A stretch of 64,000 bases of DNA from Eledone cirrhosa (GCA_964016885.1 OZ024759.1:7254001-7318000); one strand, 5' to 3'. Positions 7,902 to 59,191 are shown, numbered from the stretch's first letter. Numbers and translations are program-made. Notes: a model not told the origin generated them from the sequence alone.

Positions 7902-9202
7902 CGTGGGGGGATCAAAAAGTTAGCAGAATTTTATTGTAGTAAGAAAAAAATAGGTTAAAACAATATTAAACATGTCAGAACATTGTCACTGGGTGTTTAC
8001 CTCGCTATTAGTCACTTGCAGTCAGTTATGCACGGACTATTGTACAGTACTGACACTCTTTAAAAAACCTCTTTTTGGAACAATGGAAAATAGTTATTTT
8101 GAGATAAGATCGAATATCAAGTTTCTGGTGAAACTCAAATGGAAAGGGACACAGATTATGGAGGCTTTAGTTAAAGTTTACGGTACTACTGCTCCAAAGA
8201 AAACTGCTGTCTACAAGGGGATTCAGCGATTCAAACAAGGGAGAGACAACCATCACAGTGGAAGACTAGGAACATCAAAAAATGACCAAAACGTTGAGGC
8301 TGCTCAGACTTTAATTGAAGAAAATCGAAGAATAACAGTTAATCAGTTAGCTAAGTCCCTAGACATTTCATATGGTTCGGCAAATTCAATTCTGCACGAT
8401 AATTTGGGACTAAGCAAGCTTTCAGCGCGATGGGTCCCAAAAGCGTTGCACCCTGATCAGCTGATTCTTCGAAGTGATCTGTCTTTGGCGATATTAAACA
8501 AAATTGAAGTTTATGAAGAGCATTTCCTGACCAGAATCATCACCGGAGATGAAACCTGGATCTACCAGTATGATGCTGAATCCAAACAGCAGTCAAAACA
8601 GTGGCTTCCACGTGGATCATCGGGGCCAATCAAGTTCAAATCTCAAAAGTCGGATCAAAAAGTGATGGCCACCATTTTCTGGGATTCAGATGGGGTGATA
8701 CTAATAGATTATCTTGAAGGTCAAAGAACTGTGACAGGAGCTTACTATGCAAATATTTTAAGGAAGCTGAAAGAGGCATTAGTCAAGAAATGAAAAGGGA
8801 AACTTCATGGCGGGATCTTGTTTCACCATGACAATGCACCAGCACATTCTGCGTGGGTTGCAAAAGAAGTTCTTCGAGAATTTCGATGGGAAGTGCTTCC
8901 TCACCTGCCTTATAGTCCAGATTTAGCCCCATCAGACTTTTTCCTCTTTCCAAAACTAAAAACAAATGCTAAAAGGAACCTGTTTTAGTGGTGTTGAAGA
9001 AGCTAAAAACACTGCCAACACATGGCTTCGAACAAGGCCTTCTACTTTCTTTAGAGACGGCTGACGGAGGTGGAAGCATCGCCTTGTGAAGTGTATTGAC
9101 CTGGATGGCAACTATGTAGAAAAATAAATTGAAGGTAAATCATATTTTCTGAAAAATAGAATATTTTCTGAAAAATTCCGCGAACTTTTTGATCCCCCCT
9201 CG
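7902..9202 (+). mobile_element. Full-length mariner (Tc1/mariner, DD34D type) transposon, inactive
   Basis: TIRs cgtggggggatcaaaaagtt / aactttttgatcccccctcg flanked by TA (7900-7901, 9203-9204); motifs ARWVPK, ITGDETWIYQY, HHDNAPAH, YSPDLAPSDF; premature stop at 8793 and a later frameshift. Confidence 0.95.
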
Positions 9203-15450: not shown

Positions 15451-18400
15451 ATCATTATCATCATTTTACATCCGCTTTCCCTGCTTGCAAGGGTGGGACG
15501 GGTCTTATTCAGCACAGCATCTCTCCACTTCTCACGGTCCTTCGTCATCTCCACCGTGAGCTTCAGCAATCTGAGGTCTGTTCTCACCACCTTCGCCCAT
15601 GTTTTTCGTGGTCTACCTCTACTGTGTCTTCCTTCTACTGGCATTTTTTGGCACTTCTTCACCTATCGGTCATCCTCCATGCGCATCACATGTCCATACC
15701 ATCGCAGTCTCCTCTCTCGCACACTACATTCTATCCCTCTCAGACACAGTTTCTCTCTCAACACATCCATGCTGGGTCGTTCACACACATCGACATTGCA
15801 TATCCAATGGAGCATACTTGCTTCATTTCTCTCCAGCCGTCGCATATCTTCTGCAGTTGCTGCCCATGTCTCACTACCATGCAGCATCGCGCACCTCACA
15901 CAAGCATCATATAACTGGCCTTTCGTACGCAGGGAGAAACCCTTCTTCGTCAGCAAAGGGAGCAGCTCCCTAAACTTCTTTTAACCTGTCCTTATTCTAG
16001 ATACTATGGCCTTGGAACACCCCCCTCCCATGCTAATCTGATCACCTAGGTACCGGAAGCTATCAACCACTTCTATAGAACCCACCTACATTCTAAAAAT
16101 GTGTCTATCACTGCGATTACTACTGTCTAATTTCCCTGTACATCTACTGTATACATATTTCTCCCTACCTGTTAGTTTGAATGCTATCCCACTACATCTC
16201 TTGTGTACCCAGGATCTGCATTGCGTACATTTTGTAGAATTTATGCCAGTTCCTTTTCTGCATATCGAACACGGCCATTTCCCTGATGGAATCAGAGTTT
16301 TGTCCTCTCTTCTACTTATCAACATTTTTGTCTTAGCTAGGTTCACTCTCAGTCCTCTTGCTTCCAACTGCTGTTTCCATAGCCAGAATTTATTCTCTAG
16401 CTCCTCTACTGATTCTGCTATAAGAACCAGATCGTCAGCATAGAGAAGTTCCCATGGACAGCCAGTCTTAAACTCCTCTGTTATGGGCTTGGAGGACTAT
16501 AATGAACAAGAGCAGGCTGAGAACCAAACCCTGATGTACTCCTACTTAGATCTGGAATTCCTCACTAAACTCCATTCCTATTCTCACTTTACTGACAGCA
16601 CCTCTCTACATAGCTTGCACTGTCCTAACAAGCCATTCTTCTACACCTAGTTTCCTTAGGGACCTCCAGATGACAGATCGAGGTACCCTATCAAAGGCCT
16701 TCTCTAGGTCAACAAAAGCTAAGTATAGTGGCTTATTCTTCTCTAAGAACCTCTCTTGTAATTGTCTCACCAAGAAGAGGGCATCTGTTGTACTCTTCCC
16801 AGGCACAAAACCAAACTGCATCTCATCTAGTTTGACCCTTTCTTTAATTAGTTGCGCTAATATTCTTTCTGTCACTTTCATAACCTGATCCATCAGCTTT
16901 ATGCCCCTATAATTGCTCCTCTCTAGAGCATCCCCTTTACCTTTGTAGCAATTTATGAGAATACTGCTGCACCAGTCTTTGGGTATGACACCACCGTATA
17001 TAGCCTGATTAATGATGCGTGCAACTAGTTTAGTGCCTATGTCCCCTGATGCCTTCAGCAACTCAGCAACTATCCCCGATGCTCCAGCAGCCTTACCACT
17101 TTTCATTTCCTTAATTGACTCTTGTACCCTATATTCGTCAATCTCAATAGCTGGTCCCACTGTCGGGTCTACTGGGGGTAATTTCTCTCTCTCCCATTCC
17201 TTCTCCACATTCATCAGTCTCTCATAATGACATTTCCAGGCCTCCTTTTTTTGATCATACATGACACTAAGTACACCGGCATCATCCCAGACACATTTAT
17301 CTCCAACAACATCCTGATTTGCATTGACACACTGCCTTACAATGCGGAACACCGCATGTCTCTGATCATCCCATCGCAGAACATTGGCAAACCTCCTACT
17401 CTCAGCCTCCCCGCGTGCTAAGTACACCTGACGTCTAGCTTCTCTCTTAGCGGCTGTGTATCCTTCTCTACTCCCACCATTTTTCCAAGCCAGTCTTTTG
17501 TCTCTAATGGCCTTATCTACTGTGCTGTTCCACCACCAGGTCACTCTCTGTCTGATTGGAGCTCTGCCCCAGCCACAAGTTTCTTCAATAGCCTGCACTA
17601 AGTTGTCATGTAAGAAATTCCAGTTACCATCTATGTCATACGATTCTAAATCGTCTTCTTTTTTGTCATACACATCTTGAAGGGCTTGCTTAAATTTGTA
17701 TTTTAGTGAAAGGTCTTTTAGCTTCCAGACCTTTCTTTTCCACACCTTCCTGTATGTCGCATTCTTTCGCTTGCTTACTGAGATGTCACTAATGACTACC
17801 CTATGCTTGGGGGTACATTCTTCCCCCGGGGTAGCCTTAGTATTTGACACCATCTGTCTGTCTCGCTGTCTAACTAGCAGGAAATGAATCTGGCTTATGT
17901 GCTCGCCTGATTTGTAGGTTATTAGATGGTTGGTAGGCTTCTGGAAGTTAGTGTTGCAAATGGTTAGTGCATTTGCATCACAAAATTCAAGAAGCCTCAC
18001 TCCTTTATGATTTCTTGAGCCACAACCGTGCCCACCATGTACCCCAGTGTTTCCATCCTGGAGCTGTCCAACATGACCATTGAAGTCCCCTGCTAGCATA
18101 GAGATGTCTCCGTCCTCTGTCATTGCGGCTGTTTGTAAAAGTTGTTCATAGAAGCAGTCTTTCTCTTCTTTACCTAGGCCTGCTTGGGGAACATAGGCAC
18201 AGATGATTGTCAGTAGTCCCCTGCCTACAATTAATCTAAGCTTAATTATTCTATTACTAACTCTAACTACCTCTATTGTCTTATTGATCCATCTATCAGC
18301 CAGGAAAATGCCTACTCCCCCTAACCCATCATCATTACCCACCCAGAAAAGCTTATAACTAAGATGTTTGCCTGTGATTAGTCTTGCAGAGGCACTACTC

Positions 18401-18780
18401 CATCTCACCTCTTGCACGCAGCACACATCCACATGTGTTCTCTCCAGCATCTCCGCTATCTCACCAGATCTACCTGTGAGAGTGCCAACATTAAGTGTTG
18501 CAACTCTGAGATGCGACATCTTGTTCTTTTTCCTGTTGTGTGATTGCTTGATGACGGTCGTGGGGTTCTCACACATGCCCACACCAGCCACCCCACTACC
18601 GTGTGCAACCCTAACATGGTTAATGTTATTGCTGTTTACGCAGTTGTTGCAAATCTCATTTGTTGTGCTTATAATTTTGGCAGAAGTATATATACTGGTT
18701 GGATGCCCTTCCTAACACCAGCACCACTTTACAGCATGGACTGGGTGCTTTTATTCATGCCACCAGCACTAGGGAAGTTG
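15451..18780 (-). mobile_element. Near full-length RTE LINE subfamily A (APE-RT-PHD) in a TSFM intron
   Basis: 661-aa ORF 16606..18591 with APE motifs (TLNVGT, CCVQE, AGDFNGHVG) and RT start; downstream LLYADD, PHD-like motif, GRPRKTW and (GAT)n tail; several stops. Confidence 0.95.
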
Positions 18781-21870: not shown

Positions 21871-22249
21871 CTGAAAAAGACAAAATATATATATCATATA
21901 TAATAATATAATTATATATGATAAATTCCATAAAATGTACGCAATGCAGATCTTGGGTACACAAGAGATGTAGTGGGATAGCAGGCAAACTAATAGGCAG
22001 GGAAAACAACGTATGCAGTAGATGTACAGGGAAATTTGACAGTAGAAGTTGCAGTACCGAGGTGATCAAATTAGCAAGGGAGGGGGTGTTCCGAGGCCAT
22101 AATATCTAGAATAAGGACGGGTTGGAAGAAGTTTAGGGAGCTGCTCTCTCTGTTGACAAAGAAGGGTTTCTCCTCTCCAATATATATATATATATATACA
22201 TGTGTGTGTGTATATATATATGTGCGTATTTATATATAAATATATATAT

Positions 22250-24330
22250 ATGAGAGAAAATAAATGGGAGAAAGACAGTCTCCCCCACATCGACCCAATA
22301 GAGGGACCAGCAGTGCTAGTCGAAGGTAGTATAATAAGTAAGGCAATCAAAGATATGAAGACGGGTAAGGCGGCTGGGCCTTCGGAAATAGTTGCTGAAA
22401 TGCTGAAAGCTTCTGGAATGGTGGGACACACTATGGTCATCCGGATAGTAAACCAAGTTATACAGACTGGGGTCGCTCCGAAGGACTGGCGTAGCAACAT
22501 CATCATTAACTGCTACAAGGGTAAAGGAGATGCCCTAGATAGGGGTAACTATAGAGGCATTAAATTAATTGACCAGGTCATGAAGGTCACAGAAAAAGTA
22601 ATAGCGCAACTAATCAGAGAGCGAATTGATCTAGATGAAATGCAGTTCGGGTTTGTGTCAGGCAAAAGTACCACAGACGCTCTTGTCATTGTACGAAAAC
22701 TACAGGAGAAGTACCTAGCCAAAAGTAAACCCCTATACTTAGCTTTTGTTGACTTGGAGAAAGCCTTTGATAGAGTCCCCCGCTCCATTATCTGGTGGGC
22801 CCTTAGAAAACTAGGGGTTGATGAATGGCTTGTGAGAACTATACAAGCCATGTATAAAGAAACAGTCAGCAAGGTTAGAATTAACGAATATAGTGAAGAG
22901 TTTAGCGTAAAAGTTGGTGTTCATCAGGGCTCCGTCCTTAGCCCCCTCCTATTTATTATTGCCCTTCAGGCTATAACAGAGGAGTTCAAGACCAGTTGCC
23001 CATGGGAACTCCTATACGCAGATGATCTAACGCTCATAGCTGAATCAATGCCCGAACTAGAGAAGAAATTCCAAACATGGAAGCATGGCCTAGAATCAAA
23101 AGGCCTTAAAATTAACCTGTCTAAGACTAAAGTTCTAGTTTGTAGGAAGGAAAATAGGGCACCGTTCCCATCCGGGAAATGGCCATGCTCAGTGTGTAGG
23201 AAAGGAGTAGGCAGAAACTCCATTTTATGTCCCAAATGCAAAGTATGGGTGCATAAAAGATGTAGTGGGATCACAGGTAAGCTAACTAAGAATATAGATT
23301 TTATATGTGGCCGGTGCTCTGGTGCAATAAGTAGCAACAAGTGCCCACAGAATACTAGCTCATTCCATTGCACAGATGGTACTATAGAAATAGTGGACAC
23401 CTTCCGTTACCTGGGTGACAAAATCAGCAGTGGGGGAGGGTGCTCTGACAGTACAGTAGCTAGAGTCAGAACGGGATGGAAAAAGTTCAGATAGCTTATA
23501 CCACTATTGGCCACTAAAGACTTCTCTCTAAAAATGAAAGGCAGGCTGTATGATGCCTGCATACGAACAGCAATGTTACATGGCAGTGAGACCTGGGCAT
23601 TGTGTGCAGAGGATATACGCAGACTGGAGAGAAACGAAGCTTGCATGCTCTGCTGGATGTGTAATAGTAATATACGTGAACGGCAAAGCATAAACGAACT
23701 AAAGGAGAAATTAGGAATAAGAGGGATCAGATGTTGTTTACTCGAGAAAAGACTACGCATGAAAGACGACAGCTGTATAAAAAAGTGCAGGGCGATAAAA
23801 ATAGACGGTAGCCACGGAGTAGGCAGACCCAGAAAAACCTGGGATGACTTGATAAATTCCGACCTCACACGCTTACACCTCTCCAAGACAATGTCACTGG
23901 ACCGAGATCTTTGGCGCTACACAGTAATACAGAAGACCCGCCTTGCCTAAGTACAAAGTGAAACCTAGTCAATAGGCACCTCTAACAAAATACACCCCCG
24001 TCCCACTACCCCCACCCCATCCACACCACCCTTTCAATGTAAAGTTATGTTGGTACCACAACATCCAGTCCTAAACAAATGCGGTCATGTAGGTGTCACG
24101 ACAAAACAACACACAGTCCACGCTGTAATGTGGCCGTGTAGGTAACACGGTAAAAACCTCCCAGCCCACACTGTAAATGTGGTTGGTGTTAGGAAGGGCA
24201 TCCAGCTGTAGAAAACCCGCCAGACAGTCCTATACGAGCAAGACAACCACTCTTGCCTCAAGTGGGAAAACTCCCGTCCAAACCCATGCAAGCGTGGAAG
24301 ATGGACGTTAAACGATGATGATGATGATGA
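22250..24330 (+). mobile_element. RTE LINE subfamily B, 5'-truncated
   Basis: 430-aa ORF with RT motifs (GVHQGSVLSPLLF, LLYADD), PHD-like motif, 3' UTR and (GAT)n tail; flanked by TA-rich microsatellite on both sides. Confidence 0.95.
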
Positions 24331-35751: not shown

Positions 35752-38330
35752 TGATGGCTGCCCCCCTTGTTATCGAGTATGGCCATTGCACGAAAAAAAA
35801 ACATAACGACAATAATAATAACAACAATAATAATTGTTTCTACTTTTGGCACAAGGACAGCAATTATCTCAGTGTATTACTGGTACTTTATTTTGCACTG
35901 TATAATTGCTGGCCTTGTGCCAAAAGTAGAAACAATTATTATTGTTGTTATAATAATAATTATATATATACACACACACACACATATACATATATACATA
36001 CATATACATATCTATATTTACATATACACACACATATACATATCTATATATACATATATACATACACATATACATATCTATATATATATACACACACACA
36101 CACATATACATATCTATATATATATACACACACGCATATACATATCTATATATACATATATACATACATATACATATCTATATATACATACACACACACA
36201 TATACATATCTATATATACATATATACATACACATATACATATCTATATATATATATATACATACACACACACATGTACATATCTATACACACACACACA
36301 CAATAACAACTAACAGTGCTGCGATCGAATGTGGCTTTTTAGCCCAGCCAATGATCTAAAATGTCTTGCACAGAGTCGGCAACCAAAACATTCACTGGGA
36401 ATAGTCGGCTGTGGTTGGAGTTCGTGTACTTTTGCATGTCGCTTGAGCCCTCCTGCTGATTTACATTCTCTACCACATGTTTGGCAAGCATGATGAGTAG
36501 CATCTCCAACAGCAGCCTGGTAGTCAACCACTGGTCTTACTTTATGACTTCGAAGATGACTTTCGAGTCCAGCTTTGCTTAAGCAGAGTCTCGCACATAC
36601 GCTGCATGTCAGCACCATAAGAGGACCCTTGGCGTCTGGAAGTGCAACAGCAATGCCTTTCGTCACATCCCGCTTTACTTTCTCGTATGTGATTCGAGAT
36701 GACTCAGAGGCAACTTTTCCCTCATATACAGTCTTTCTCCATTTATTACGATCAGCAGCAACATTTTCCCATGTATCAGCAGAGATGTTAGCGTCTTTCA
36801 GAGAGGCTTTCAAGGAATCCTTATACCTCTTTTTTGGTTTATGTGGTGGTCGTTTTCCTTTAACTAACTCTCCATAAAAGAGTTGTTTTGGTATTCTAGA
36901 ATCCTTCATCCTGGCAAGGTGACTACGACAACGGAGTCGTTGCTTAAGCACAAGAGCTGCTATAGAGCACACATAGAGCTTTCCAAAATCTCGACATCAC
37001 TGATGTGGTCCCTCCAGTGAATGCCATGGATCCGTCTGAGACACATCTGATGGAAACGCTCCAATTGCTTAAGGTGGTGTCGATATGTGACCCAGGTCTC
37101 GCAGGCATAAAGAAGAGAAGAGAGCACACATGCCTTGTACACCTTTACCTTTGTCCTCCTGCATATGTCTCGCCGACCCCAGAGTCGCCTTTCTAGTTTT
37201 CCGAAAGCATCACTTGCTTTCCTAATCCTAAGTGAGATTTCACTGTCAAGGTTGCTGTATCGATTGACAGTGCTTCCCAGGCAGACAAACTGATCAACCA
37301 CTCCAAGTCGTTTACCATACACATAGATATTTGGTTCACTGTCCTGCTTACCAGGGGCAGGTTGGTACATGACAACGGTTTTCTTGAGACTGACAGTCAA
37401 TCCTAGGGCAGTGCAAGCACCAGAAAATGCATATCACTCTCTGTGTGCGCTACAAGATTGCAATCATCTGCATACAAGAGGTCTCTTATGATGGATGGAA
37501 ATACTTTTGTTTTTGCAGCAAAGTGCCTGATGTTAAATATGCTGCCTGAGGTTTGATATTGGATGTAAACACGATGCTCACAATTCCTGAATGCAATATA
37601 GAAAACCATTGCAAAATATATGGCAAACAGGATCAGTGCTGGAATATCCCGCTGTTTCACTCCATTTTTTACTGAGATAGGCTCTGACATGTTACCTCCG
37701 ACATTAACCCAAGCCTTCATGTCGTCATGGAAGACCTAACTAAAGCAAGGAACTTATCAGGGCAACCAAGTTTCTGGAGAACCTTCCATAATGCATTGCT
37801 GTTGACAGTATCGAAAGCTTTTGTCAGATCGACAAAAACCTGATACAGATCCAAACCTTGTTCCATGCACTTCTGGAGCTGTCTAGCTGAGAAGATCATA
37901 TCAGTAGTGCCGCGTCCAGCACGAAAACCAGATTGACTTTCAGGAAGAACACAATCTGCAATGTGTGTCAGCAGACGGTCCAGAAGCACCCTACATAAAA
38001 CTTTCCCTACGACAGAAAGCAATGATATACCTCTGTAGTTCCCACAATCATTCCTGTTATCCTTTCCCTTGTACAAGACCACCATTACTGCATCTCTCCA
38101 GTCCTCAGGTACGGATTCATTAGCCCATATCCTGGAAAACAAAGAGTGAAGATGTTGCAGGAGTCTCTCACCACCATATTGTAGGAGCTCTGCATGTATG
38201 GCATCCATACCTGGAGACCTTCCACTGTTCAGCTTCGAGATAGCCACTGCAACCTCCACAAGCGTCGGAGGTTCTGCAAGAGCTACTTTCACAGGTTTTT
38301 CAGGAATGAGATTGAGGAAATCTTCATTGA
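35752..38330 (-). mobile_element. RTE (BovB-like) LINE with three C-terminal C2H2 zinc fingers, 5'-truncated
   Basis: NYRGISLLS, QSGFRAGRGT, FVDLTKAFD, LLYADD, PKQLFYGEL, then CxxC-x12-H-x3/4-H three times; 3' end interrupted by a SINE fold-back and microsatellite. Confidence 0.92.
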
Positions 38331-38589
38331 CATACATACAAACATACATACATAGATAATTACTTGTTTAAACATTGTGTAAGCTCCAATGATTCCAGAC
38401 AGTTGTCTGGAAGAAACGATCATCAGCAATTAAATGTATTAAGCTAAAATTTAATTGTTTTATATTTTGTATCTCTGCTCTGTAATACGTCGGATAATTT
38501 ACATTGAGCTTTTTCTCTTACTGGTAATTAGGTAGTGCTTAATACTACCCTTTCATATTTATAATTATATATAACTCATATATAAGTAT

Positions 38590-42100: not shown

Positions 42101-44395
42101 TCATCATCATCATCATCTTCGTTTAACGTCCATCTTCCACGCTAGCATGGGTTAGACGGGAGTTGTCCCACTTGAGGCAAGGTTGGTCGGGTGACCGTGT
42201 CTCGCTCATATAGGACTGTCTGGCAGGTTTTCTATGTCTGGATGCCCTTCCTAACACCAACCACATTTACAGTGTGGACTGGGAGGTTTTTACCGTGTTA
42301 CCTACAAGACCACATTACAGCGTGGACTGTGTGTTTTCTCATGACACCTACACGATCTCGATCTCGATCTCATTATCTCGTTCTGTTGGTGGGAGTGGGA
42401 GGATAGGGTAGGGGTAGTGGATTGGGGTGTATATTTGGTTAAGAGGTGCCTACTGACTGTAGGTTTTGCTTTGTACATAGGCAAGGCGGGTTTTCTGTAT
42501 TACTGCATAGCGCCAAAGATCTTGGTCCAGTGACATTGTCTTAGAGTGGTGCAAGTGTGTAAGGTCGGAATTTATCAGATCGTCTCAGGTTTTTCTGGGT
42601 CTGCCTACTCCATGGCTACCATCAATTTTGATCACCCTGCACCTTTTTATACAGCTGTCGTCTTTCATGCGCATCACGTGGCCATACCAACGTAGTCTTC
42701 TCTCGAGTAAACAGCATCTGATTCCTCTTATTCCTAATTTCTCACTTAGTTCATTTATGCTTTGCCGTTCACACATATTACTATTACACATCCAACGGAG
42801 CATGCATGCTTCGTTCCTTTCCAGTCTGCGCAGGTCCTCTGCACGTAATACCCATGTCTCACTGCCATGTAACATTGCTGTTCGTATACAGGCATCATAC
42901 AGCCTGCCTTTCATTTTTAGAGAGAAACCTTTTGAGGCCAACAGCGGTATAAGCTCTCTTAACTTTTTCCATCCCGTTCTGACTCTGGCTACAGTACTTT
43001 CAGAACACCCTCCACCACTGCTGATTTTGTCACCCAGGTAACGGAAAGTGTCTACTATTTCTATAGAACCATCTGGGCAATAGAAGGAGCTAGTATCCTG
43101 TGGACACTTGCTACTTATTGCACCTGAGCATCGGCCACATATAAAGTCTACGTTCTTAGATAGTTTACCTGTGATCCCACTACATCTTTTATGTACCCAT
43201 ACTTTGCATTTGGGACATAAAATTGAATTTCTGCCTACTCCTTTCCTACACGCTGAGCAAGGCCATTTCCCTGGGGGTACCTGTGCTTTATTTTCCTTTC
43301 GACAAACTAGGACTTTAGTCTTAGACAAGTTAACTTTAAGGCCTTTTGATTCTAGACCATGTTTGGAATTTCTTTTCTAGTTCAGCCATTGATTCAGCTA
43401 TGAGCGTTAGATCATCTGCGTATAGGAGTTCCCATGGGCAGCTGGTCTTGAACTCCTCTGTTATAGCCTGAAGGGCAATAATAAATAGGAGGGGGCTAAG
43501 GACAGAGCCTTGGTGAACACCAACTTTTACACTAAATCCTTCACAATATTCATTGTTAATTCTAACCTTACTGACTGTTTCATTATACATGGCTTGTATA
43601 GCTCTCACAAGCCATTCATCTACACCTAGTTTTCTTAGACCCCACCAGATAATGGAGCGGGGGACTCTGTCAAAGGCTTTCTCTAGGTCTACAAAAGCTA
43701 AGTAGAGGGGTTTACTTTTAGCTAGGTACTTCTCTTGTAGTTTTGTCGTACAATGAAAAGAGCGTCTGTGGTACTTTTACCCGACACAAACCCAAACTGC
43801 ATTTCATCTAGATCAATTCGTTCTCTGATTAGTTGCGCTATAACTCTTTCTGTGACCTTCTTGACCTGGTCAATTAACTTAATGCCTCTATGTTGAACAT
43901 CTCCTTTACCCTTGTAGCAGTTAATGATGCTGCTGCTATGCCAGTCTTTTGGTATGACCCCATTCTGTATTACTTGGTTAACTATATAGGTAACCATAGT
44001 ATGTCCCACCATACCAGATGCCTTCAACATCTCAGCAACTATCTCCGAAGGCCCAGCTGCCTTTCCTGTCTTCATATCTTTGATTGCCTTACTTATTATA
44101 CTACCTTTACCTTGCACCGCTGGTCCTTCTATTGGATCGATTTGGGGCAGACTATCTTTTTCCCATTTATTTTCCTCATTTAATAGTCTCTCGTAGTGAC
44201 ACTTCCAAGCTATCTTCTTATCAGTATCAGTGAGGGCAAGTACACCGTTATCATTAAGTACACACTTCTCTTTGACAATATCACGGTTTTCCTTGACACA
44301 TTGCCTAGCAATCCTGAACACCTCACGTTTTTGGTCCTCGCGTTGTAGAACATGCTTGAACTTTCTTTCCTCTGCTTCCCTTTTTGCAAGCTACA
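42101..44395 (-). mobile_element. RTE LINE subfamily B, 5'-truncated
   Basis: ORF pieces 43722..44321, 43336..43608 and 42585..43328 with RT and PHD-like motifs; (GAT)n tail. Confidence 0.93.
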
Positions 44396-45605: not shown

Positions 45606-45809
45606 AAAAAGAATGACCCCGACGGCAGAGCTCAAGCCGTTTCGACGGTTATTTCTGGAGTCCAGAAATAGCCGTCGAAACGGCTTGAGCTCTGCCGTCG
45701 GAGTCGTTCTTTTTTCCTTTTACCCACTCTACTACTCTAAGTACTGAGTACTCTGGTGCGTTATGGTCCATCTGGTTCCTTACCACAACTCCTTACCACA
45801 ATTCCTTAT

Positions 45810-46152
45810 ATCATCATCATCATCATCATTTCATTTTACGTCCGCTTTTTCCCTGCTTGCAAGGGTGGGACGGGAACTGATTCTGGCTTGATTTCTACAG
45901 CTGGATGCCCTTCCTAACACCAACCTCATTTACAGTGAGTGCTGGGTGCTTTTTTGCTGTGGCACCTCCATGACCACTTTACAGTGGAATGATAGGGACC
46001 CCAGTCCCTATCATCTCATTTCTACAGCTGAGTAAACCGGAGCAATGTGAAATAAAGTGTCTTGCTCAAGGAAACAACACATCACCTGGTCTGAGAATTG
46101 AACTCACAACCTTTCGATTGCAAGGCCAATGCTCTAACCACTAAGCCAGGCG
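45810..46152 (-). mobile_element. SINE family 2 (tRNA head, CORE-like body, RTE-derived middle and tail); further copies at about 48855-49180 (-) and 60338-60730 (+)
   Basis: Head tggcttagtggttaga..gagttcaattct, body ccttgagcaagacacttt, motif gtgttaggaagggcatccagc, RTE-type 3' end with (GAT)n. Confidence 0.85.
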
Positions 46153-48814: not shown

Positions 48815-49703
48815 CTATATATATATATATATTATATATATATACTATATATATCATCATCATCATTTTACGTCCACTTTTCCCTGCTTGCAAGGGTGGG
48901 ACGGGAACTGATTCTGGCTTGATTTCTACAGCTGGATGCCCTTCCTAACACCAACCTCATTTACAGTGAGTGCTGGGTGCTTTTTTGCAGTGGCACCTCC
49001 ACGTCCACTTTGCAGTGGAATGATAGGGACCCCAGTCCCTATCATCTCATTTCTACAGCTGAGTAAACTGGAGCAATGTGAAATAAAGTGTCTTGCTCAA
49101 GGAATCAACATCACCAGGTCTGAGAATTGAACTCACAACCTTTCGATTGCAAGGCCAATGCTCTAACCACTGAGCCATGCCTCCATATATATATATATAT
49201 ATAGTATATATATACACTATATATATATTATATATATATTACATATATATATTATATATATATATAATATATTATATATATATATTATATTATATATATA
49301 TATATAATATATTATATATATATATTATATATATTATATTATATATATATATACTATATATATATATTATATATATATATTATATATATATATTATATAT
49401 ATATTACATATATATATTATATATATATTACATATATATATTATATATATATTACATATATATATTATATATATTATATATGTATATTATATATATATAT
49501 TATATATATATATACTATGTATATATATATTATATATATATTACATATATAATATTATATATATATATTATATATATATATACATATTATATATATATAC
49601 TATATATATATATATTATATATATATTACATATATATATTATATATATTATATTATATATATATATTATATATATACATATATTATATTATATATATATA
49701 TAA

Positions 49704-52700
49704 CTAGCAGAGGTACCCGGCGTTGCCCGGTATAACTCTCAATGGAGTAGTCCTTCAAATGAACCGAAAGACTTTCGTTAAACACGACTATAGAAGTAAC
49801 AATTTATAGGTGTTGGCCATAAAGAGGGCCTTTGAAATATCTCTGCAGTGCTGCTGCCAGCAAAGACAAATCCGATAGTAACAATTTAAAGTTGGTGGCC
49901 CTAAAGAGGGCCTTGGATCGTTCACTCTTAAAAGTCTCAGTGGCGGTGTTGCCAGCAAAGATGAATCCAGCGATAACAATTTATAGTTGGTGGCCCTGAA
50001 GAGGACCTTTTAACGTTCACTTGGAAATATCTCAGTGGTGGTGCTACCAGCAAAGATGAATCTGATGGTAACAATTTAACCTTGGTGGCCCTGAAGAGGG
50101 CCTTAGATAGTTCACTCTTAAAAGTCTGGAGCTGTCAGCAAAGACGATACCGATTAGAGGTGGTGGCCCTTAAGAAGTCCTTCACACCACTTTGGTGTGT
50201 CGTATTTGCTTTGCTTGTTATTTGAGATTGTAACCTAGAAAAGCATGTCACAGTCGGTGGCCACAAAAATGGCCTTGGCAAGATCACGCTGGAATGTCAA
50301 AAAAATGTAAATAAGATGTAGGGAAAAGTAGATTAATTAGGTTAAATCTACGGAACATCGATAGCAAAGTGTAATAGCAACATATAAATGCGGAAAACGG
50401 AGACATTGAACATTTATAATGTATAGCAAAAGCAACCTCAGAGGGGTACGTGGTAGTGTCAAAATGACAAAAATAGCACATGGATACAGCAAATGTAAGC
50501 ACTTATATAAAAAAAAAACAGAGATTACTTGTTGGCGGATGGGGTGCCTACAAAACTTCCTTATAGACTATATTTTGGGTTTTCTCACGAGCTGCAAAAG
50601 CAAATAGGTTATGTCGGCTCCCCACTCGAGAGCAGCCAACATATAGTTGACCATGGAGAAGCACGGTTCTTCTAAATTAAGCCCTACAACCGTCAGCGTC
50701 TGACCCTGTGATTTGTTAATCGACATGGCAAAACTGAGCCGGAGAGGGAATTGCAGTCTTCTCAATGTGGAAGGAATGTCTTTACCGGATGGAATGAGAG
50801 GTATCCTTGGTATTAAGACAGTATCCCCTTACCACATCCTGTAAGTATTGTTGCCTCAATAACATGAGGCATCGACTTTTAGACGACCAGATGTGTGCCG
50901 CTGGAAAGCCTTCGGGGTTCCAATTCCTGAGTAGCATGACAGGGGCACCTTTCTTAAGTTGCAGTAAGTGTGGTGGCAATCCGGGAGGGTCTAGGGAGTT
51001 AAGAAATTCTGTGGGGTAATTAACAACTTCGTCCGGATCAGCCATAGAGTCAAGGGACTTGTAGACGTGCAGGTTTCCAGGGCAAGCACAGCAGGAGCTG
51101 TTCATTGATGCTGCCAACTATGTGGTTTTTCGAAGCCAATATTCTGCGTTCACACAACCTCTCTTGATTTGTGTAGTTCTCCTCAAGATTAGGAAAAACA
51201 GACGTCCGTAACTCAGCAATTGACTTGACGCATCTGCAAATCCCTGTGCGGTCCACTGCACCATCTCTGTCGAGTGGGACTTTGCCATCTCCCAACGACA
51301 AAATGGCAGCAGAAAAACCCGTTGATGTCTCATCACCTTGCAGTTGTGCTCTCATGTTTGTTGTAAACGTCAGCTTTCTTACATAACGCCAAAGTGAGGA
51401 GGCCTTAAGGCATGCACCAACCTCATCAGCCCGCGTTTCTTTTGGGATTACAGGCAGAGTCTGTCAGAAGTCCCCAGATAACAGGAAAGTGACACCTCTC
51501 ATTGGTTCTTGACAGTCCCTGATGTCTCTGAGTGACCAGTCTAATGCCTCGAAAGCCGCCCTGTGGGCCATTGTGCATTTGTCCCAAACAATTAGTAGGC
51601 AGCGCTTTAACACCTGTGCTTTTCCGGAAAACTTGCTGATGTTGCACGTGGGAGTCTTAGATGATGCCACGTTGAGAGGAAGACTGAAGGCAGAATGGGC
51701 CGTCCTGCCACCAGGCAGCAAAGTTGCTGCAGTGCTAGAAGAAGCCATGGCCAATGTGATGTTTCCGTGTTGCCTCACTGCAACGAGTAAAAGTTTGATT
51801 ACAAATGTTTTGCCCGTGCCTCCAGGTGCGTCCAGGAAGAATATACCCCCTCCCCGATTACGGATGGAATCAATGATAATGTTGTAGGCTTGTTTTTGAT
51901 CCATTAGAAGTTTTTGTTCATTTTCTTCAACATACCTTTTGAGTTCGTCGACATCGTATGACGTTTCACGTATAATGTCGTTGGGAATGTCAGATGGCGC
52001 ATCTCGAAGTGTTTGCGGGAGCCCATATTTCTCCAGGACATCTCCGCCCATTGAAGCCACTCTGTCTTCAATATTGATCAGAGCTCTGTTATATATAGCG
52101 ATTGTAAAGCCAACATCTAAGTTTGGAGATTGCAATTGAGCGAGACGCCTATATTCGTCTGCGAAATCATCTTTAAACTTTTGCCATAAAGAGTAAGGAT
52201 CGCTCAATTCACAGATGTACAATAGGATAGCAAAAAGTGCTCTTAGACTACGGGATGATTGTGAGATGGCAGCTTCCGTCAAGGTTGCATCCCATTGTGC
52301 ATCATCTTCTAAAAGTCCACGCCTCAAGCAGGCTTCCCTGTACGTTCCGCAGACATATCCATCAAAAGTTCTTAGATGAGTGAAGCTGGTCGGCCCTCTT
52401 ACCTCATGAAGCAGATGTCGCAGGTAGAAGCATTCGTGTTGGGTAGGGTGGACCGTATAAACTCACCCAAGGCAATTGTCGAATTTGATGCTTGGATGTC
52501 CAACCACCTCTTATTCTACCTTCCTTCGTAGCCATTTTGTCTGGTTCCATGTATTAAGACAGTATTTCAGAATACAGCAGAGTTCGAGCGAAGTCGTCGT
52601 GTTGACAAAGTTTGAAAAAAGTGGTGAGTGTAGTTTCCTTTGGTGAGCTCGCTAGCTGAGCAGCTGTTGCATCATTGAAATACACCCGTTGACCGTTTTC

Positions 52701-53265
52701 AAGGTGAACGGCAAGTTGTTTAATGATGGGGTGTCGTTGGTGCAGTGGGAAGTCAAAAATGCACCAAAAGGCTTTATTGCTGCTAATGTATCGGCCTGCT
52801 TGGTAGTCAGATACCTTGCCTTTACTGTTTTCATGAGGAAGCCCAAAGACGGCAGCATCCGATCCCTTGTTTACGTACTTACAAATGTATTTAATTGATT
52901 TTACTGAGTTGCAAAATTCCACGTTTATATGGGAATTGAACGCTTTCAAGAGGAGGGGGCAATATGGCACTATCCAGCTGTTGTCGATTTCGCGTTCGCC
53001 AACTTTTGCTGTGAACCCACCGTCTTCAGGTCTCCTGCGCCTATACAACGGATATCCGTCACCGCCACTCTGTGTTTCCTGTAAAAAGCCTAGGATATCG
53101 TTTTGTACACTTTCTATAGTGTATGCACAGGGACTTCATATTGAGTCCATGTCCGCAAGGACCATGGACCATGTTTGATGTGACTATAGAGAAGAGGTCC
53201 TTGTCAATCGACGGATCAGGTAGTTCGGCAGAAATGAATTTGTTGATGTAGTTTGAACTGATTTT
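49704..53265 (-). mobile_element. Helitron (RepHel), 5'-truncated and decayed, with intact 3' terminus
   Basis: Rep-region motifs MVHGPCG, YRRR, DNSWIVPY, HINVEFCNSVKSIKYICKYVNKG; PIF1 helicase DAPGGTGKT, GRTAHS, LLSGDF, QFPLRLSFAMSINKSQGQT; stop near 50548; terminal hairpin ccgggcaacgccggg then CTAG|T at 49704. Confidence 0.95.
49795..50280 (-). repeat. Helitron subterminal tandem array (78-95 bp period), each unit with a histone-type stem-loop
   Basis: Six 6-bp-stem, 4-nt-loop hairpins reading AA-GGCCCT-CTTY-AGGGCC-ACC (or close variants) on the minus strand. Confidence 0.85.
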
Positions 53266-53409
53266 TGTAACCAACCAACACATAAACAGCTCCCAACGGG
53301 AATGATCGATGCAAATTCTGCATATCTATGAGATTGGCATCTTCCAGCCTGACAAGTTGAACACTCTACAGTTATTAGGAAAGTAACCAACCCTAACTAG
53401 GGATTTATA

Positions 53410-55720
53410 TGAAATGGATTATTAAAAACATCCCGACACTCTCTAATGTTTCTTATACCAAAACGTTGGTTGAGAAAGTTGAGAATGTTGTATAAAGAAT
53501 GAGATGGAAGGCTATAATCTTTGACGGACAATTCGGTTTAAATTCAAAGGAGTACTTTGACATCAAGTCATGCAAATACCCTCCAAGAGTTAAGGATATG
53601 GCCCCTTTTGAATTCGACTTAGTTAATATGATGAACCAACTAAAATTTCGTAAGTACAATAATAATTTTCAAACTAAACTTGCTAATGATATTTCTAATA
53701 TTAAGTCTTCTAATAATAAGTTTGTATTTTCTGGTAAGACTAAAAACTTATATGAATTAAATAACGATTTATATAACCAACTTTTAACAGATAGTATCAC
53801 TACCAAATATCAAAAAGCCAAAAAGAACACCCTTAATAATATAAATAATGAAGCTAAAAACATTGCAAATAAATTAAAAATTGATAATAGAATTAAAAAC
53901 CTAGCTAAACATAAAGGTTATATTACACTGAAAGACCACAAAATAGATTTCATTAACAGACCTAGTTGTAGACTCATTAACCCCACTAAATCAGAAATTG
54001 GTCTTGCCAGTAAAAATATCTTAAGAAATATAATTTTAAAAATAAGAAGTAAAACAGAACTTTATCAATGGCTAAATACATCTTCAGTAGTTTCATGGTT
54101 TAATAATATACCTGAAATAGATCTAGATTCACTCAATTCGATATAGTAGACTTCTACCCATCTATAACTCACTCCTTATTAGCCAAAGCATTAAAATTCG
54201 CTAAAAATTATACTGATATATCCGATTTAGAAGAGGAAGTAATTTTGTATGCTCTTTTAGCCAAAGATGAAACTTGGGTAAAAAAATAAAACCCAGAAAA
54301 TCCTTTTGATGTCTCTATGGGTTCTTTTGGCAGTGCCGATAAGTGTGATTTCATTGGCTTGTTCCTTTTACACACAATAAAGGAGAAATCTCCAAATCAC
54401 ACTATGAGGTTATATCGAGATGACGGACTAACAGTCTCTCATACCACCAATGGCCATGACCTGGACACATTTCGTAAAGATTTAAATAAAACTTTTTCTG
54501 ATCTAAACCTTAAAATTACTATAGATACTAATCTTACCAACGTAAATTTCCTCAATATAAATCTTGACTTACTCACTGCTTCCTTTAAACCTTACCATAA
54601 ACTTAATGAGAATCTTAAATATATAAATAAACAGTCATGCCACCCCACTCCCCATAGTATTTAAAAACCTCATCCCAAATATTAGCCGAAGGATATCTAC
54701 CCTCTCTTCTTTGGAAGAAATATTTAATAAAGCAGCCCCTTACTATAATAAGGCCCTTAAAAATAGCAGATTCACTGAACAAATTAAATATATTTCTAAC
54801 TCCTCTAATCCTTCTAAACATAATAATAGGAAAAGAAAAATAATCTGGTTCACACCACCTTCTTTTTAGCACTCAAAACTAATGTAGGTAGAAAATTCCT
54901 TGAATTAGTAGATAAACATTTCCCCATCACCATAAATATAATAAAATTTTTAATAGAAACAGTGTCAAGATTAGCTATTAGCATAAAATCGAAAATAACT
55001 ACCGGAAAAACTGACAGAGGAATCCCAGGATGTTCGTGCAGAAATGCAGGTGAATGTCCTTTGCAAGGCAAATGCAACATTAAATCTGTTGTATATGAGG
55101 CAATTATAAGACCTATTAACACTAACCAGCCTTCTACCAGAGAACGTTATGTGGGCATGACTCAGGATACCTTTAAAAAAAGATATTATGCACACGTCAC
55201 TTCCTTTTGACACCAGGATAAAAAGAAAACTATGGCGCTGGCAAATAGAATGTGGGAGATGAAAGAGCGTGGGGTCCCATATGAAATTGATTGGTCTATT
55301 TTAGACCAATCAAAAAAATATGTAAAAGGCACAAGAAGGTGTACCTTGTGTGTAACAGAAAAAAACAGGATTCTACAAGATGTGAAATCTTCCAACACCT
55401 GTCTTAACTTTAATTCTGAAATTTTTGAAATTTTCCCACATATGAGAACTCATCTCCTTTCTCAACATCATAATACCATCTTGGACACTTATCCACCTTG
55501 AACACCCTCTCTTATTTTAAAAACCCTGGACCTTTATCACAAATTCAACACTTATTTCATATTACACCTTTATTTTATTTTACACCTATATTATTCACTT
55601 ATTGACTTTTTCATTTCCTTTACTTTTTACCTTGAACACTCTCTCTTACATTAACCACCCTGGACCTTCCCCACACACTTTCATTTACTGAGTCCTCTTA
55701 ATCCTTACTTTCGAACCTTA
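53410..55720 (+). mobile_element. Penelope-like element, Naiad-type (RT plus C-terminal GIY-YIG), decayed
   Basis: KNIP, MRWKA, (D>G)KTxNLY, ITLKDHK, CRLINP, FDIVDFYPSI, MGSF, LYRDDGL, linker CSCRNAGECPLQGKC, VVYEA..YVGMT..FKKRY..H, CTLCVTEK. Confidence 0.88.
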
Positions 55721-56504: not shown

Positions 56505-56890
56505 TGAAGAAATGAAGCAAGCATGCTCCGTTGGATATGCAATGTCAATGTGCATGATCGACCAAGCATAGACGAGTTGAGAGAGAAACTGGGTATAAGA
56601 GGGATAAACTGTAGTGTGCAGGAGAGGAGACTGCGGTGGTATGGACATGTGATGCGCATGAAAGATGACCGCTGCGTGAAGAAGTGTCATGTAATCCCGG
56701 TGGAAGGAAGACGTAGTAGAGGGAGGAAGACCACTGAGATCATGGGCGGAGGTGGTGAGAGGGGACCTCAGATTGCTGAATCTCACGGAGGAGATGACAA
56801 AGGACCATGACAAGTGGAGAGATGCTGTGCAAAAGAGGACCCGTCCCACCCTTGCAAGTAGGGAAAAGCGGGCATAAAATGATGATGATG
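56505..56890 (+). mobile_element. RTE subfamily A 3' fragment, tail-to-tail with the next copy
   Basis: MLRWICNV...RLRWYGHVMR; 3' end with (GAT)n. Confidence 0.85.
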
Positions 56891-56910
56891 ATATGTATAT
56901 ATATATATCT

Positions 56911-59191
56911 CATCATCATCATTTTATGTCCGCTTTTCCCTGCTTGCAAGGGTGGGACGGGTCTTATTCAGCACAGCATCTCTCCACCCGTCACAGTTCT
57001 TCGTCATCTCCACCGTGAGCTTCAGCGATCTGAGGTCTGCTCTCACCACCTCCGCCCATGTTTTTCGTGGTCTACCTCTACCGCGTCTTCCTTCAACTGG
57101 CATTTCCTGGCACTTCTTCACCCATCGGTCATCCTCCATGCGCATCACATGTCCATACCACCGCAGTCTCCTCTCTCGCACACTACATTCTATCCCTCTC
57201 AGACCCAGTTTCTCTCTCAACACATCCATGCTGGGTCATTCACACACATTGACATTATTGCACATCCAACGGAGCATGCTTGCTTCATTTCTCTCCAGCC
57301 ATAGCATATCCTCTGCAGTTGCTGCCCATGTCTCATTACCATGCAGCATCGCGCTCCTCACACAGGCATCATATAACCAGCCTTTCGTACGCAGGCAGAA
57401 ACTCTTCTTCGTCAGCAGAGGAAGCAACTCCCTAAACTTCTTCTAACCCGTCCTTATTCTAGATACTATGGCCTTGGAACCCCCCCCCCCCCTTCCCATG
57501 CTAATCTAATCTCCTAGGTACCGGAAGCTATCCACCATTTCTATAGCACCCGCCTGCATTTGAAAAATGTGTCTATCAATGTGACTTCTACTGTCTAATT
57601 TCCCTGTACATCTACTGCATACGTATTTCTCCCTACCTGTTAGTTTGCCTGCTATCCCACTACATCTCTTGTGTACCCAGGATCTGCATTGTGTGCATTT
57701 TATAGAATTTATGCCAGTTCCTTTTCTGCATATCAAACGTGGCCATTTCCCTGACGGAATCAGAGTTTTGTCCTCTTTTCTACTTATCAACACTTTAGTC
57801 TTAGCTAGGTTCACTCTCATTTCTCTTGCTTCCAACGGCTGTTTCCACAGCCAGAATTTATTCTCTAGCTCCTCTACTGATTCTGCTATAAGAACTAGAT
57901 CATCAGCCTAGAGAGGTTCCAATGGGCATCCAGTCTTAAACTCCTCTGTTATGGCTTGGAGGACTATAATGAACAAGAGCAGGCTGAGGACCGAACCTTG
58001 ATGTACTCCTACTTGTATCTGGAATTCCTCACTAAACTCCATTCCTACCCTGACTTTACTGACAGCACCTCTGTACAAAGTTTGCACTGTCCTCACAAGC
58101 CATTCCTCTACACCTAGTTTCCTTAGGGACCACCAGATGACAGATCAGGGTACCCTATCAAAGGCCTTCTCTAGGTCAACAAAGGCTAAGTATAGTGGTT
58201 TATTCTTCTCTAAGAACCTCTCTTGTAATTGTCTCACCAAGAAGAGGGCATCTGTTGTACTTTTCCCAGGCACAAAACCAAACTGCATCTCATCTAGTTT
58301 GACCCTTTCTCTAATTAGTTGTGCTAATATCCTTTCTGCCACTTTCATAACCTGAACCATCAGTTTTATACCCCTATAATTTCTCCTCTCCAGAGCATCC
58401 CTTTTACCTTTGTAGCAATTTATGAGAATACTGCTGCACCAGTCTTTGGGTATGACGCCACCATATATAGCCTGATTGATGATGCATGCAACCAGTTTAG
58501 TGCCTATGTCCCCTAATGCCTTCAGCATCTCAGCAACTATTCCCGATGGTCCGGCAGCCTTACCACTTTTCATTTCCTTAATTGACTCTTGTACCCTATA
58601 TTCGTCAATCTCAATAGCTGGTCCCTCTGTCGGATCTACTGAGGGTAATTTCTATCACTCCCATTCGTTCTCCACATTCATCAGTCTCTCGTAATGACAT
58701 TTCCAGGCCTCCTTCTTTTGACCATTCGTGACACTAAGTACACCGGCATCATTCCGGACACATTTATCTCCAACAACATTGCATTGACACACTGCCTTGC
58801 AATGTGGAACACCGCACGCCTCTGATCTTCCCGTCGCAGAACATTGGCAAACCTCCTACTCTCAGCCTCCCTGCGTGTTAAGTAGACCTGACGTCTTGCT
58901 TCTCTTTTAGCGGCTGTGTATCCTTCTCTACTCCCACCCTTTTTCCAAGCCTTCCATGCTAGTCTTTTGTCTCTAATAGCCTCATCTACCATGCTGTTCC
59001 ACCACCAGGTCACTCTCTGTCTGGTTGGAGCTCTGCTCCAGCCACAACTTTCATCAGTAGCCTGCAGTAAGTTGTCACGTAAGCAATTCCAGTTATTATC
59101 TATGTCATACGTCTCTAAATCGTCTTCTTTTTCGTCATCTTGAAGGGCTTTCCTAAATTTGTATTTTAGTGAAAGGTCTTTTAGCTTCCAG
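56911..59191 (-). mobile_element. RTE LINE subfamily A, 5'-truncated
   Basis: Closely similar to 15451-17730; RT and PHD-like motifs with multiple lesions. Confidence 0.93.

Follow-up and report, generated by a model that had tools for sequence, protein, structure and literature searches.

Histone-type stem-loops in the 3′ region of an Eledone cirrhosa Helitron and behind other transposase genes

A decayed Helitron with an array of six hairpins

The 64,000-nucleotide stretch of Eledone cirrhosa DNA analyzed here (the window) carries, on its minus strand, a 5′-truncated Helitron copy of family A (the family letters, A to H, are labels coined in this analysis), with 6 hairpins between its RepHel gene and its terminus (Table 1). 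All matches between this copy and 3 other family A copies stop at position 53278, and the truncated gene was assigned to RepHel through the Pfam matches of its PIF1 helicase (PF05970, E 9e-41 and 5.6e-10; PF21530, E 3.4e-13). Its reading frame is interrupted by stops and frameshifts and closes with a stop codon at 50548-50550. The window copy is dead, given its broken PIF1 frame and the cut at 53278. A previous reading of the locus from the sequence alone had placed the helicase stop at about 50548 and the terminal CTAG at 49704, both correctly. The carrier of the array is an ordinary Helitron: like canonical members, it has a PIF1 helicase, a GC-rich subterminal palindrome, a CTAG end followed by T and dispersed copies, and unlike them, it includes an additional stem-loop module between the stop codon and the terminus. 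The surrounding sequence is rich in remnants of other elements, including one just upstream of the cut end of the Helitron which, by its motifs, we take to be Penelope-like. MicroRNA-family scores at 56811-56991 and 45608-45712 were dismissed as spurious, both being long near-perfect inverted repeats.

Table 1. Positions of the Helitron copy, its hairpins and other features of the window.
Feature	Position	Strand	Remarks
Helitron family A copy, 5′-truncated, decayed	49704..53278	-	~89-93% identical to three other copies
RepHel remnant: end of Rep region and PIF1 helicase	50548..53278	-	PF05970, PF21530; three-frame translation
Hairpin 1, degenerate older unit	50259..50274	-	Top pair U-G; U-loop
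Hairpin 2	50165..50180	-	A-G mismatch fixed across the family; fully paired in 0/30 copies
Hairpin 3, GGCCCT-CTTC-AGGGCC-ACC	50087..50102	-	26.2 bits; fully paired in 23/30 copies
Hairpin 4, GGTCCT-CTTC-AGGGCC-ACC	49992..50007	-	25.4 bits; fully paired in 23/30 copies
Hairpin 5, GGCCCT-CTTT-AGGGCC-ACC	49897..49912	-	29.1 bits; fully paired in 25/30 copies
Hairpin 6, mismatched in the window copy	49815..49830	-	16.3 bits; fully paired in 14/30 copies
~95-bp tandem unit: GTGAACG motif, stem-loop, ACC, AATTGTTAC motif, spacer	49852..50127	-	TRF
Subterminal palindrome, GC-rich (Helitron termination hairpin)	49716..49730	-	Separate from the array
Terminal CTAG (3′ end), then T	49704..49707	-	CTAG followed by T, with different flanks, in 25/30 copies
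Reverse-transcriptase-like remnant, AT-rich	53400-54700	+	Just upstream of the Helitron's cut end; one frame without Pfam match
Retroelement remnant with PHD finger	22157-23491	+	PHD finger in frame after reverse transcriptase
Retroelement remnant with PHD finger	42588-43376	-	
C2H2 zinc-finger array ORF	36313-36996	-	
Mariner transposase remnant	7954-8790	+	Histone-type stem-loop absent behind it
LINE remnants	16609-18711, 37720-38367, 58148-58651		
tRNA-like heads of a dispersed SINE-like repeat	46083-46151, 49120-49177	-	30.5 and 29.3 bits

All 6 hairpins claimed by the sequence-only reading were recovered as 16-mers at their positions on the minus strand. Four of them (hairpins 1, 3, 4 and 5) have a 6-bp stem paired at all 6 positions around a 4-nt loop, with one G-T pair each in hairpins 1 and 4, and hairpins 2 and 6 have one mismatch apiece. 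All 6 have a G-C base pair in stem position 2, with a U at loop position 3, the features named as diagnostic of histone stem-loops in the main text of a recent survey (bioRxiv 10.64898/2026.10.14.759114), and all 6 units have the two adenines on the 5′ side and the one on the 3′ side which, according to the accessible text of PMC10388802, are sufficient for SLBP binding. Loop position 1 is a C in 5 of the 6, as the initial reading had cautioned. A search of the window with a histone-type pattern allowing up to 2 mismatches returned 6 matches, namely, hairpins 2 to 6 (each with at most one mismatch) and one unrelated match, compared with 0.28 on average and never more than 2 in 100 shuffles of the window, so that the hairpins are far above chance expectation. 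Nevertheless, against the Rfam Histone3 model (RF00032; gathering cut-off, 34 bits), where the identity proposed for the hairpins could have been expected to register, none of them reached the cut-off: hairpins 3 to 6 scored 16.3-29.1 bits, and hairpins 1 and 2 were absent from the listing.

The spacers, which had been described as varying, are constrained: TRF recognized a 95-bp unit (2.9 copies, 78% match), and units 2 to 6 can be aligned through their spacers. Because units 3 to 6 form a ~95-bp tandem repeat, the 6 hairpins are not independent events. The first hairpin lies 274 nt and the first intact one ~445 nt from the RepHel stop. An outer helix joining the GTGAACG and ATTGTT motifs was considered and rejected, its prediction being inconsistent over 15 folds.

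Family A is dispersed throughout the genome, with 40 of the 233 candidates scored and identities of 88-100%. Across 30 copies, 4 hairpins are intact at the family level and units 1 and 2 are degenerate. Unit 1 mostly has 2 G-T pairs, and the A-T pair of hairpin 1 that had been taken for a compensatory change is found in only 2 of the 30 copies, the same place being occupied by G-T in 18. The window copy does contain 2 partly broken hairpins, as had been noticed, but hairpin 6 is broken at the level of this copy, the intact form being the commonest in the family (11/30). An expectation that hairpins would be better conserved than spacers among family copies did not hold up: in 28 dead copies (excluding that of the window and its twin at 97%), mismatches amount to 3.8% (102/2664) in hairpins vs 3.0% (330/10896) in spacers, which argues for the absence of selection after insertion, as expected for dead copies. 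Between paralogous units, hairpin identity is higher than that of either flank in 13/15 unit pairs, a comparison which carries little weight because it takes the hairpins as its anchor and allows no gaps. At G000:C1:163.63-163.64 Mb (L345-L352), a ~4.4-kb repeat with a truncated family A 3′ end occurs four times in tandem. Four RNA contig runs revealed neither ends nor strand; one contig from a second organism matches part of the array and is too small for use.

The module in host histone genes and other Helitrons

The array was compared with the histone genes of the host. Stem-loops were found in 31 distinct intronless genes (11 H3, 8 H4, 7 H2B and 5 H2A; from 61 loci), in the form GG(C/T)CCT-TTT(T/C/A)-AGG(G/A)CC and 19-38 nt past the stop; they were absent from 4 additional histone-like ORFs. 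The stem of family A is identical to that of the host, including the GGTCCT wobble form of hairpin 4, which occurs in some host H2A and H2B genes, so that this comparison supports the initial reading. The loop differs, with C at position 1 in family A and U in 31/31 histone genes, and position −1 is A in family A and in 1 of the 31 host genes. According to the accessible text of PMC1924863, the histone hairpin of Caenorhabditis elegans has the loop CTTT or CTTA, so that C at loop position 1 works there; family A resembles it in this respect, although in C. elegans the C belongs to the hairpin of the host itself and comes with an SLBP matched to it, whereas here the host uses U throughout. The host encodes an SLBP RNA-binding domain, and human SLBP reportedly tolerates a C in the loop (Michel et al. 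2000). No U7 snRNA was found in the host genome, where the one match (29.7 bits, cut-off 34) was not accepted.

The initial reading had also pointed out the lack of a purine-rich U7 element downstream of the array. There is indeed none, but its absence matters little because the downstream element of the host itself is a short (A/T)GT core (WAGT) at +14 to +20, mostly +17/18, and contains no extended purine run. In family A, TGTTAC begins at +14, at the edge of this range. No counterpart of the GTGAACG flanking motif was found in the host histone genes.

Further Helitrons of the host were collected by a helicase-domain search (5126 candidates, of which 150 were scored and 70 looked at). Among these 70 loci, 58 belong to family C, 11 to family B and 1 to family F. 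The histone-type stem-loop is absent from the examined loci of families C and F. Of the 11 family B loci, 2 have a perfect stem-loop with a U-loop, one is interrupted and one is ambiguous, and in 7 a common deletion has removed the module from a subfamily that still spread. Near-identical family C copies ~100-200 kb apart (L094-L121; G000 C19, C20, C27 and C16) suggest a very large tandem or segmental repeat. Pattern searches of the whole host genome extended the set. The stem-loop followed by ATTGTTAC yielded 22 matches vs 0 in controls (9 in family B, 9 in a new family D and 4 in family A), whereas the plain patterns gave 888 matches vs 7 in the control with a U-loop and 371 vs 1 with a C-loop. 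Four of the first 30 U-loop matches belong to family E, which has a short array, and the first 30 C-loop matches divide into 20 of family A and 10 of family H.

In families B, D and E, GGCCCT-TTT(C/T)-AGGGCC-ACC lies about 200-500 nt after the RepHel stop. Over the host Helitrons, the distance from stop to hairpin is 200-700 nt, vs the 19-38 nt of host histones. In family D, a single perfect AACAAC-GGCCCT-TTTT-AGGGCC-ACC lies ~200 nt past the stop, and the element has its own terminal hairpin. Family H elements are ~1.1-1.5 kb long and have one C-loop module; several copies have TC and CTAG at their ends. Neither a RepHel match in these elements nor an autonomous partner of the family was found. 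These non-coding elements (TC...CTAG, then T) are represented by L330, L332, L334, L335, L342-L344, L353, L354 and L358. The hairpins are in tandem in families A, B and E and in a single copy in families D and H and in the elements of the second host described below. Loop position 1 is U in families B, D and E, the Merlin-type element and the elements of the second host, and C in families A and H. Families B, D, E and H share the GTGAACG and AATTGTTAC flanking motifs, with variation. The 12 Helitron loci scored with Rfam Histone3 were all below 34 bits (best, 33.2).

The module is retained across diverged families, the best protein segments among A, B and D being 50-65% identical. In the 3′ regions of families A, B, D and E, it forms the best local alignment in all 6 pairs, with scores of 33-52, compared with shuffle maxima of 25-36 (60 shuffles per pair) and masked scores of 18-29; the aligned part comprises GTGAACG, the stem-loop, ACC and AATTGTT. 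The 9 pairs that include family C or the Helitron of the second host align at background level. The module is the only alignable island in these 3′ regions and, as such, the main evidence for selection over the long term in active lineages. The stem covaries: the G2-C15 pair is invariant in 18/18 transposon hairpins, 98% of the cells are paired, and in 3 pairs both sides have changed. Because the rows from the second host share one host, the independent double changes number only about three.

In the Helitron tree (40 rows, including 20 of 80 metagenome loci; L167 dropped out), support is 97/90 for A+E and 93/89 for A+B+E, with families D and those of the second host lacking a resolved position; a single clade of stem-loop Helitrons was neither established nor rejected (p-AU 0.33, 40 rows). 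AATAAA is lacking in the 3′ regions of families A (0/17, located ends), B (0/4) and D (0/7), few families in all, and present in 12/12 of the stem-loop-less family C and in 4/4 of the Helitron of the second host; since ~0.5 would be expected by chance per 860 nt (an estimate), its absence is too weak an argument alone.

Stem-loops behind cut-and-paste transposases and in a second host

Histone-type stem-loops also lie behind the transposases of 3 cut-and-paste superfamilies. We take the element with PF12762 to be Merlin, and DDE_Tnp_4 and other Pfam or motif matches to mark Harbinger, Tc1 and Penelope elements. In the host, 24 of the first 30 (of 888) U-loop matches fall into one repeat cluster with a Merlin/IS1595-type transposase (PF12762), in which the stem-loop, together with a downstream element, is ~140 nt past the transposase stop. 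The ~55 nt that follow this stem-loop match one host H4 gene, and additional stem-loop copies face outward at the opposite end of the element. The H4-derived 3′ end is a capture of recent date and could be in use or idle. Loci of this cluster, the largest among the first 30 matches, include L293-L295 and L306-L307 (G000:C1:45.54 Mb and 63.52 Mb). In G000 C18 (4.9-12.6 Mb), C28, C370 and C1636, a fold-back element of ~600 bp was observed (L032-L060), in which two H4-type 3′ ends stand back to back at a distance of ~45 bp; because L034 retains a piece of H4 coding sequence and the H4 gene L036 has downstream sequence in common with the element, the latter captured or carries an H4 end.

The second host was reached through G001 (CAXXBX01), a 10.4-Mb species-representative MAG titled Dehalococcoidia bacterium, many contigs of which carry eukaryotic transposons, likely owing to heavy host contamination. 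We infer the contigs with eukaryotic transposons and TA microsatellites to be animal contamination. An RF00032 scan of this assembly returned 24 matches, including 9 above the cut-off (Tc1 and Harbinger elements). Eleven matches belong to a first Tc1 family, 3 to a second one, 4 to a Helitron and 2 to a Harbinger-like element, in which a stem-loop follows each of two convergent ORFs, one with DDE_Tnp_4 and its partner without a Pfam match. All 20 assigned stem-loops, some placed via common 3′ sequence as the frames are broken, are on the strand of the ORF, about 45-125 nt past its stop, and are followed 12-16 nt downstream by a purine-rich CAGAGAG or CAAAGAG. The spacing in the Tc1 and Harbinger elements is near the 25-60 nt given for histone genes in the main text of the survey (bioRxiv 10.64898/2026.10.14.759114). 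Two of the 4 Helitron loci are canonical, with AAAACC-GGCTTT-TTTA-AAAGCC-AC and CAGAGAGAG ~125 nt past the RepHel stop, and two are degenerate. The stem-loop is absent from a third Tc1 family in this assembly. None of the 24 matches is behind a histone ORF, and the second host yielded no histone gene with which to compare them. The remaining 4 matches (L281, L283, L288 and L289) form convergent pairs in a duplicated repeat (G001:C63, 72944-73342 and 124656-125054) in which no long ORF was found; the stem-loops of a pair carry HDE-like motifs and are separated by ~350 bp. The cleanest case of the pattern is provided by the loci L266-L289 and L320-L326 of this assembly, with two Tc1 families, the Helitron and the Harbinger-like element.

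Among 151 genomes of the same class, G001 alone had RF00032 matches above the cut-off, so no second contaminated assembly was found. A sense stem-loop was present in none of the best 80 of 589 metagenome Helitron loci, many of which have short flanks. In viral contigs, the module pattern gave 0 matches and no relative of the helicase was found; plain stem-loop patterns gave 1, 0 and 2 matches. One histone-like hairpin, situated on a giant-virus contig where two genes converge (L362, 2501-2522), has no purine-rich motif after it and is probably an ordinary intergenic hairpin.

Possible roles of the stem-loops

Compared with the Histone3/SLBP/U7 system, the array has the 6-bp stem of the host, a 4-nt pyrimidine loop, G2-C15 and loop U3, an A-rich 5′ flank and an ACC 3′ flank, and is located on the coding strand past a stop codon. 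It differs in being behind a transposon gene and in tandem copies, in the C at loop position 1 (families A and H), in the distance of 200-700 nt that separates it from the stop codon of host Helitrons, in a doubtful HDE and in scores below the Rfam cut-off. We did not file it as a Histone3 member because it falls short of that cut-off, lacks the loop U1 of the host and is not positioned behind a histone ORF. The initial interpretation stands in part. The identity as a histone signal has more in its favor than the sequence alone could provide, namely, the host stem, 4 RepHel families and other transposases followed by HDE-like motifs; against it are the Rfam cut-off and the hairpins of dead copies, which are no better conserved than spacers. 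The hairpins are real, active lineages have kept them under selection, and the pattern to which they belong is wider than the initial reading had recognized; their function is a predicted one. We found no earlier report of transposon-borne histone stem-loops in the literature, although subscription papers, Repbase or Dfam notes and supplements could hold one; queries for Helitron with histone stem-loop, Helitron with SLBP, and U7 with HDE and mollusc returned nothing, and the main text of the 2026 pathway survey (bioRxiv 10.64898/2026.10.14.759114) contains neither "transpos" nor "non-histone".

We consider it fairly probable that the array is a tandem-amplified histone-type module whose hairpins were co-opted as predicted SLBP sites in the RepHel mRNA. 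More broadly, the evidence tips us towards the view that Helitron, Tc1/mariner, PIF/Harbinger and Merlin elements repeatedly took over the histone 3′-end pathway, their mRNAs being SLBP-bound and, in some, U7-cut and non-polyadenylated, and on balance we would see in the window array the amplified Helitron form of this takeover by animal transposons. The element would be transcribed through the stem-loop module, host SLBP would bind the stem-loops in the RepHel mRNA, and the mRNA would gain histone-like handling, being stabilized and translated during S phase or in oocytes, so that RepHel production would coincide with host DNA replication; in some elements, the mRNA end would be cut by U7 and lack poly(A). 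Given the tandem copies, the C-loop, the long distance from the stop and the doubtful HDE, family A hairpins are likelier to be redundant SLBP landing sites, with copy number offsetting weaker sites, than one cleavage signal. For the Tc1 and Harbinger elements of the second host, true histone-type 3′ end formation with U7 cleavage is predicted because of their spacing and HDE-like motif. An RNA signal read by SLBP would be one explanation for rolling-circle and cut-and-paste elements alike.

The same features could have arisen without any function, if a captured histone 3′ end had grown into a minisatellite via rolling-circle or slippage errors. The array is a 95-bp tandem repeat, Helitrons with terminal minisatellites and captured host DNA have been described (PMC12001565, accessible text), the Merlin-type element with its match to an H4 3′ end extending ~55 nt past the hairpin exemplifies a recent capture, and both the lack of excess conservation in dead copies and the loss of the module from the family B deletion subfamily are in line with a passenger. 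The parallel with the minisatellites of Heli2Xen and DINE/HINE is close, these being tandem ~100-170-bp units near the Helitron end; unlike in those, the core of the unit is conserved here between families, and the word "histone" does not occur in the accessible text of that paper (PMC12001565). A passenger should have decayed with the rest of the 3′ region, yet the module is the sole alignable island in 4 families, and the signal recurs in sense behind ORFs of 4 superfamilies, with a different stem in the second host, which makes the neutral origin unlikely as a full explanation. The Helitron coding strand is the transferred strand, and the hairpins might act there, or on the circle, as a RepHel site, a pause or a point of second-strand priming, with the histone likeness reflecting their origin only. 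Retention of the module in the non-coding family H, the GTGAACG and ATTGTT motifs conserved across host Helitrons and atypical for host histone genes, and the G-T wobbles on the coding strand would fit such a DNA-level element. We nevertheless judge it improbable, as the family B deletion subfamily moved without the module, it is missing from families C and F and from 80 other Helitron loci, the Helitron has an ordinary terminal hairpin apart from the array, and the same stem-loop occurs in cut-and-paste elements, which have no single-stranded stage. The array RNA could also serve as a decoy, its multiple hairpins sequestering SLBP or 3′hExo and thereby disturbing host histone supply or silencing, instead of controlling the mRNA that carries them. 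The tandem copies in families A, B and E and retention in non-coding family H would suit a decoy, which we regard as very improbable: families D and H and the elements of the second host are single-copy, and a few hundred mostly dead copies would be unlikely to match histone mRNA levels.

Under the SLBP-site reading, transposons likely borrow the histone-RNA machinery of their hosts, so as to be active when DNA is replicated or in the germ line. Cut-and-paste transposons gain copies in S phase. If the reading is true, the transposase mRNAs would represent the first animal mRNAs outside the histones to be bound by SLBP and, in some cases, U7-cut and non-polyadenylated, and such transposase mRNAs would escape poly(A)-selected RNA-seq. 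Transposition would be directly coupled to S phase and the germ line, through a timing mechanism that is testable.
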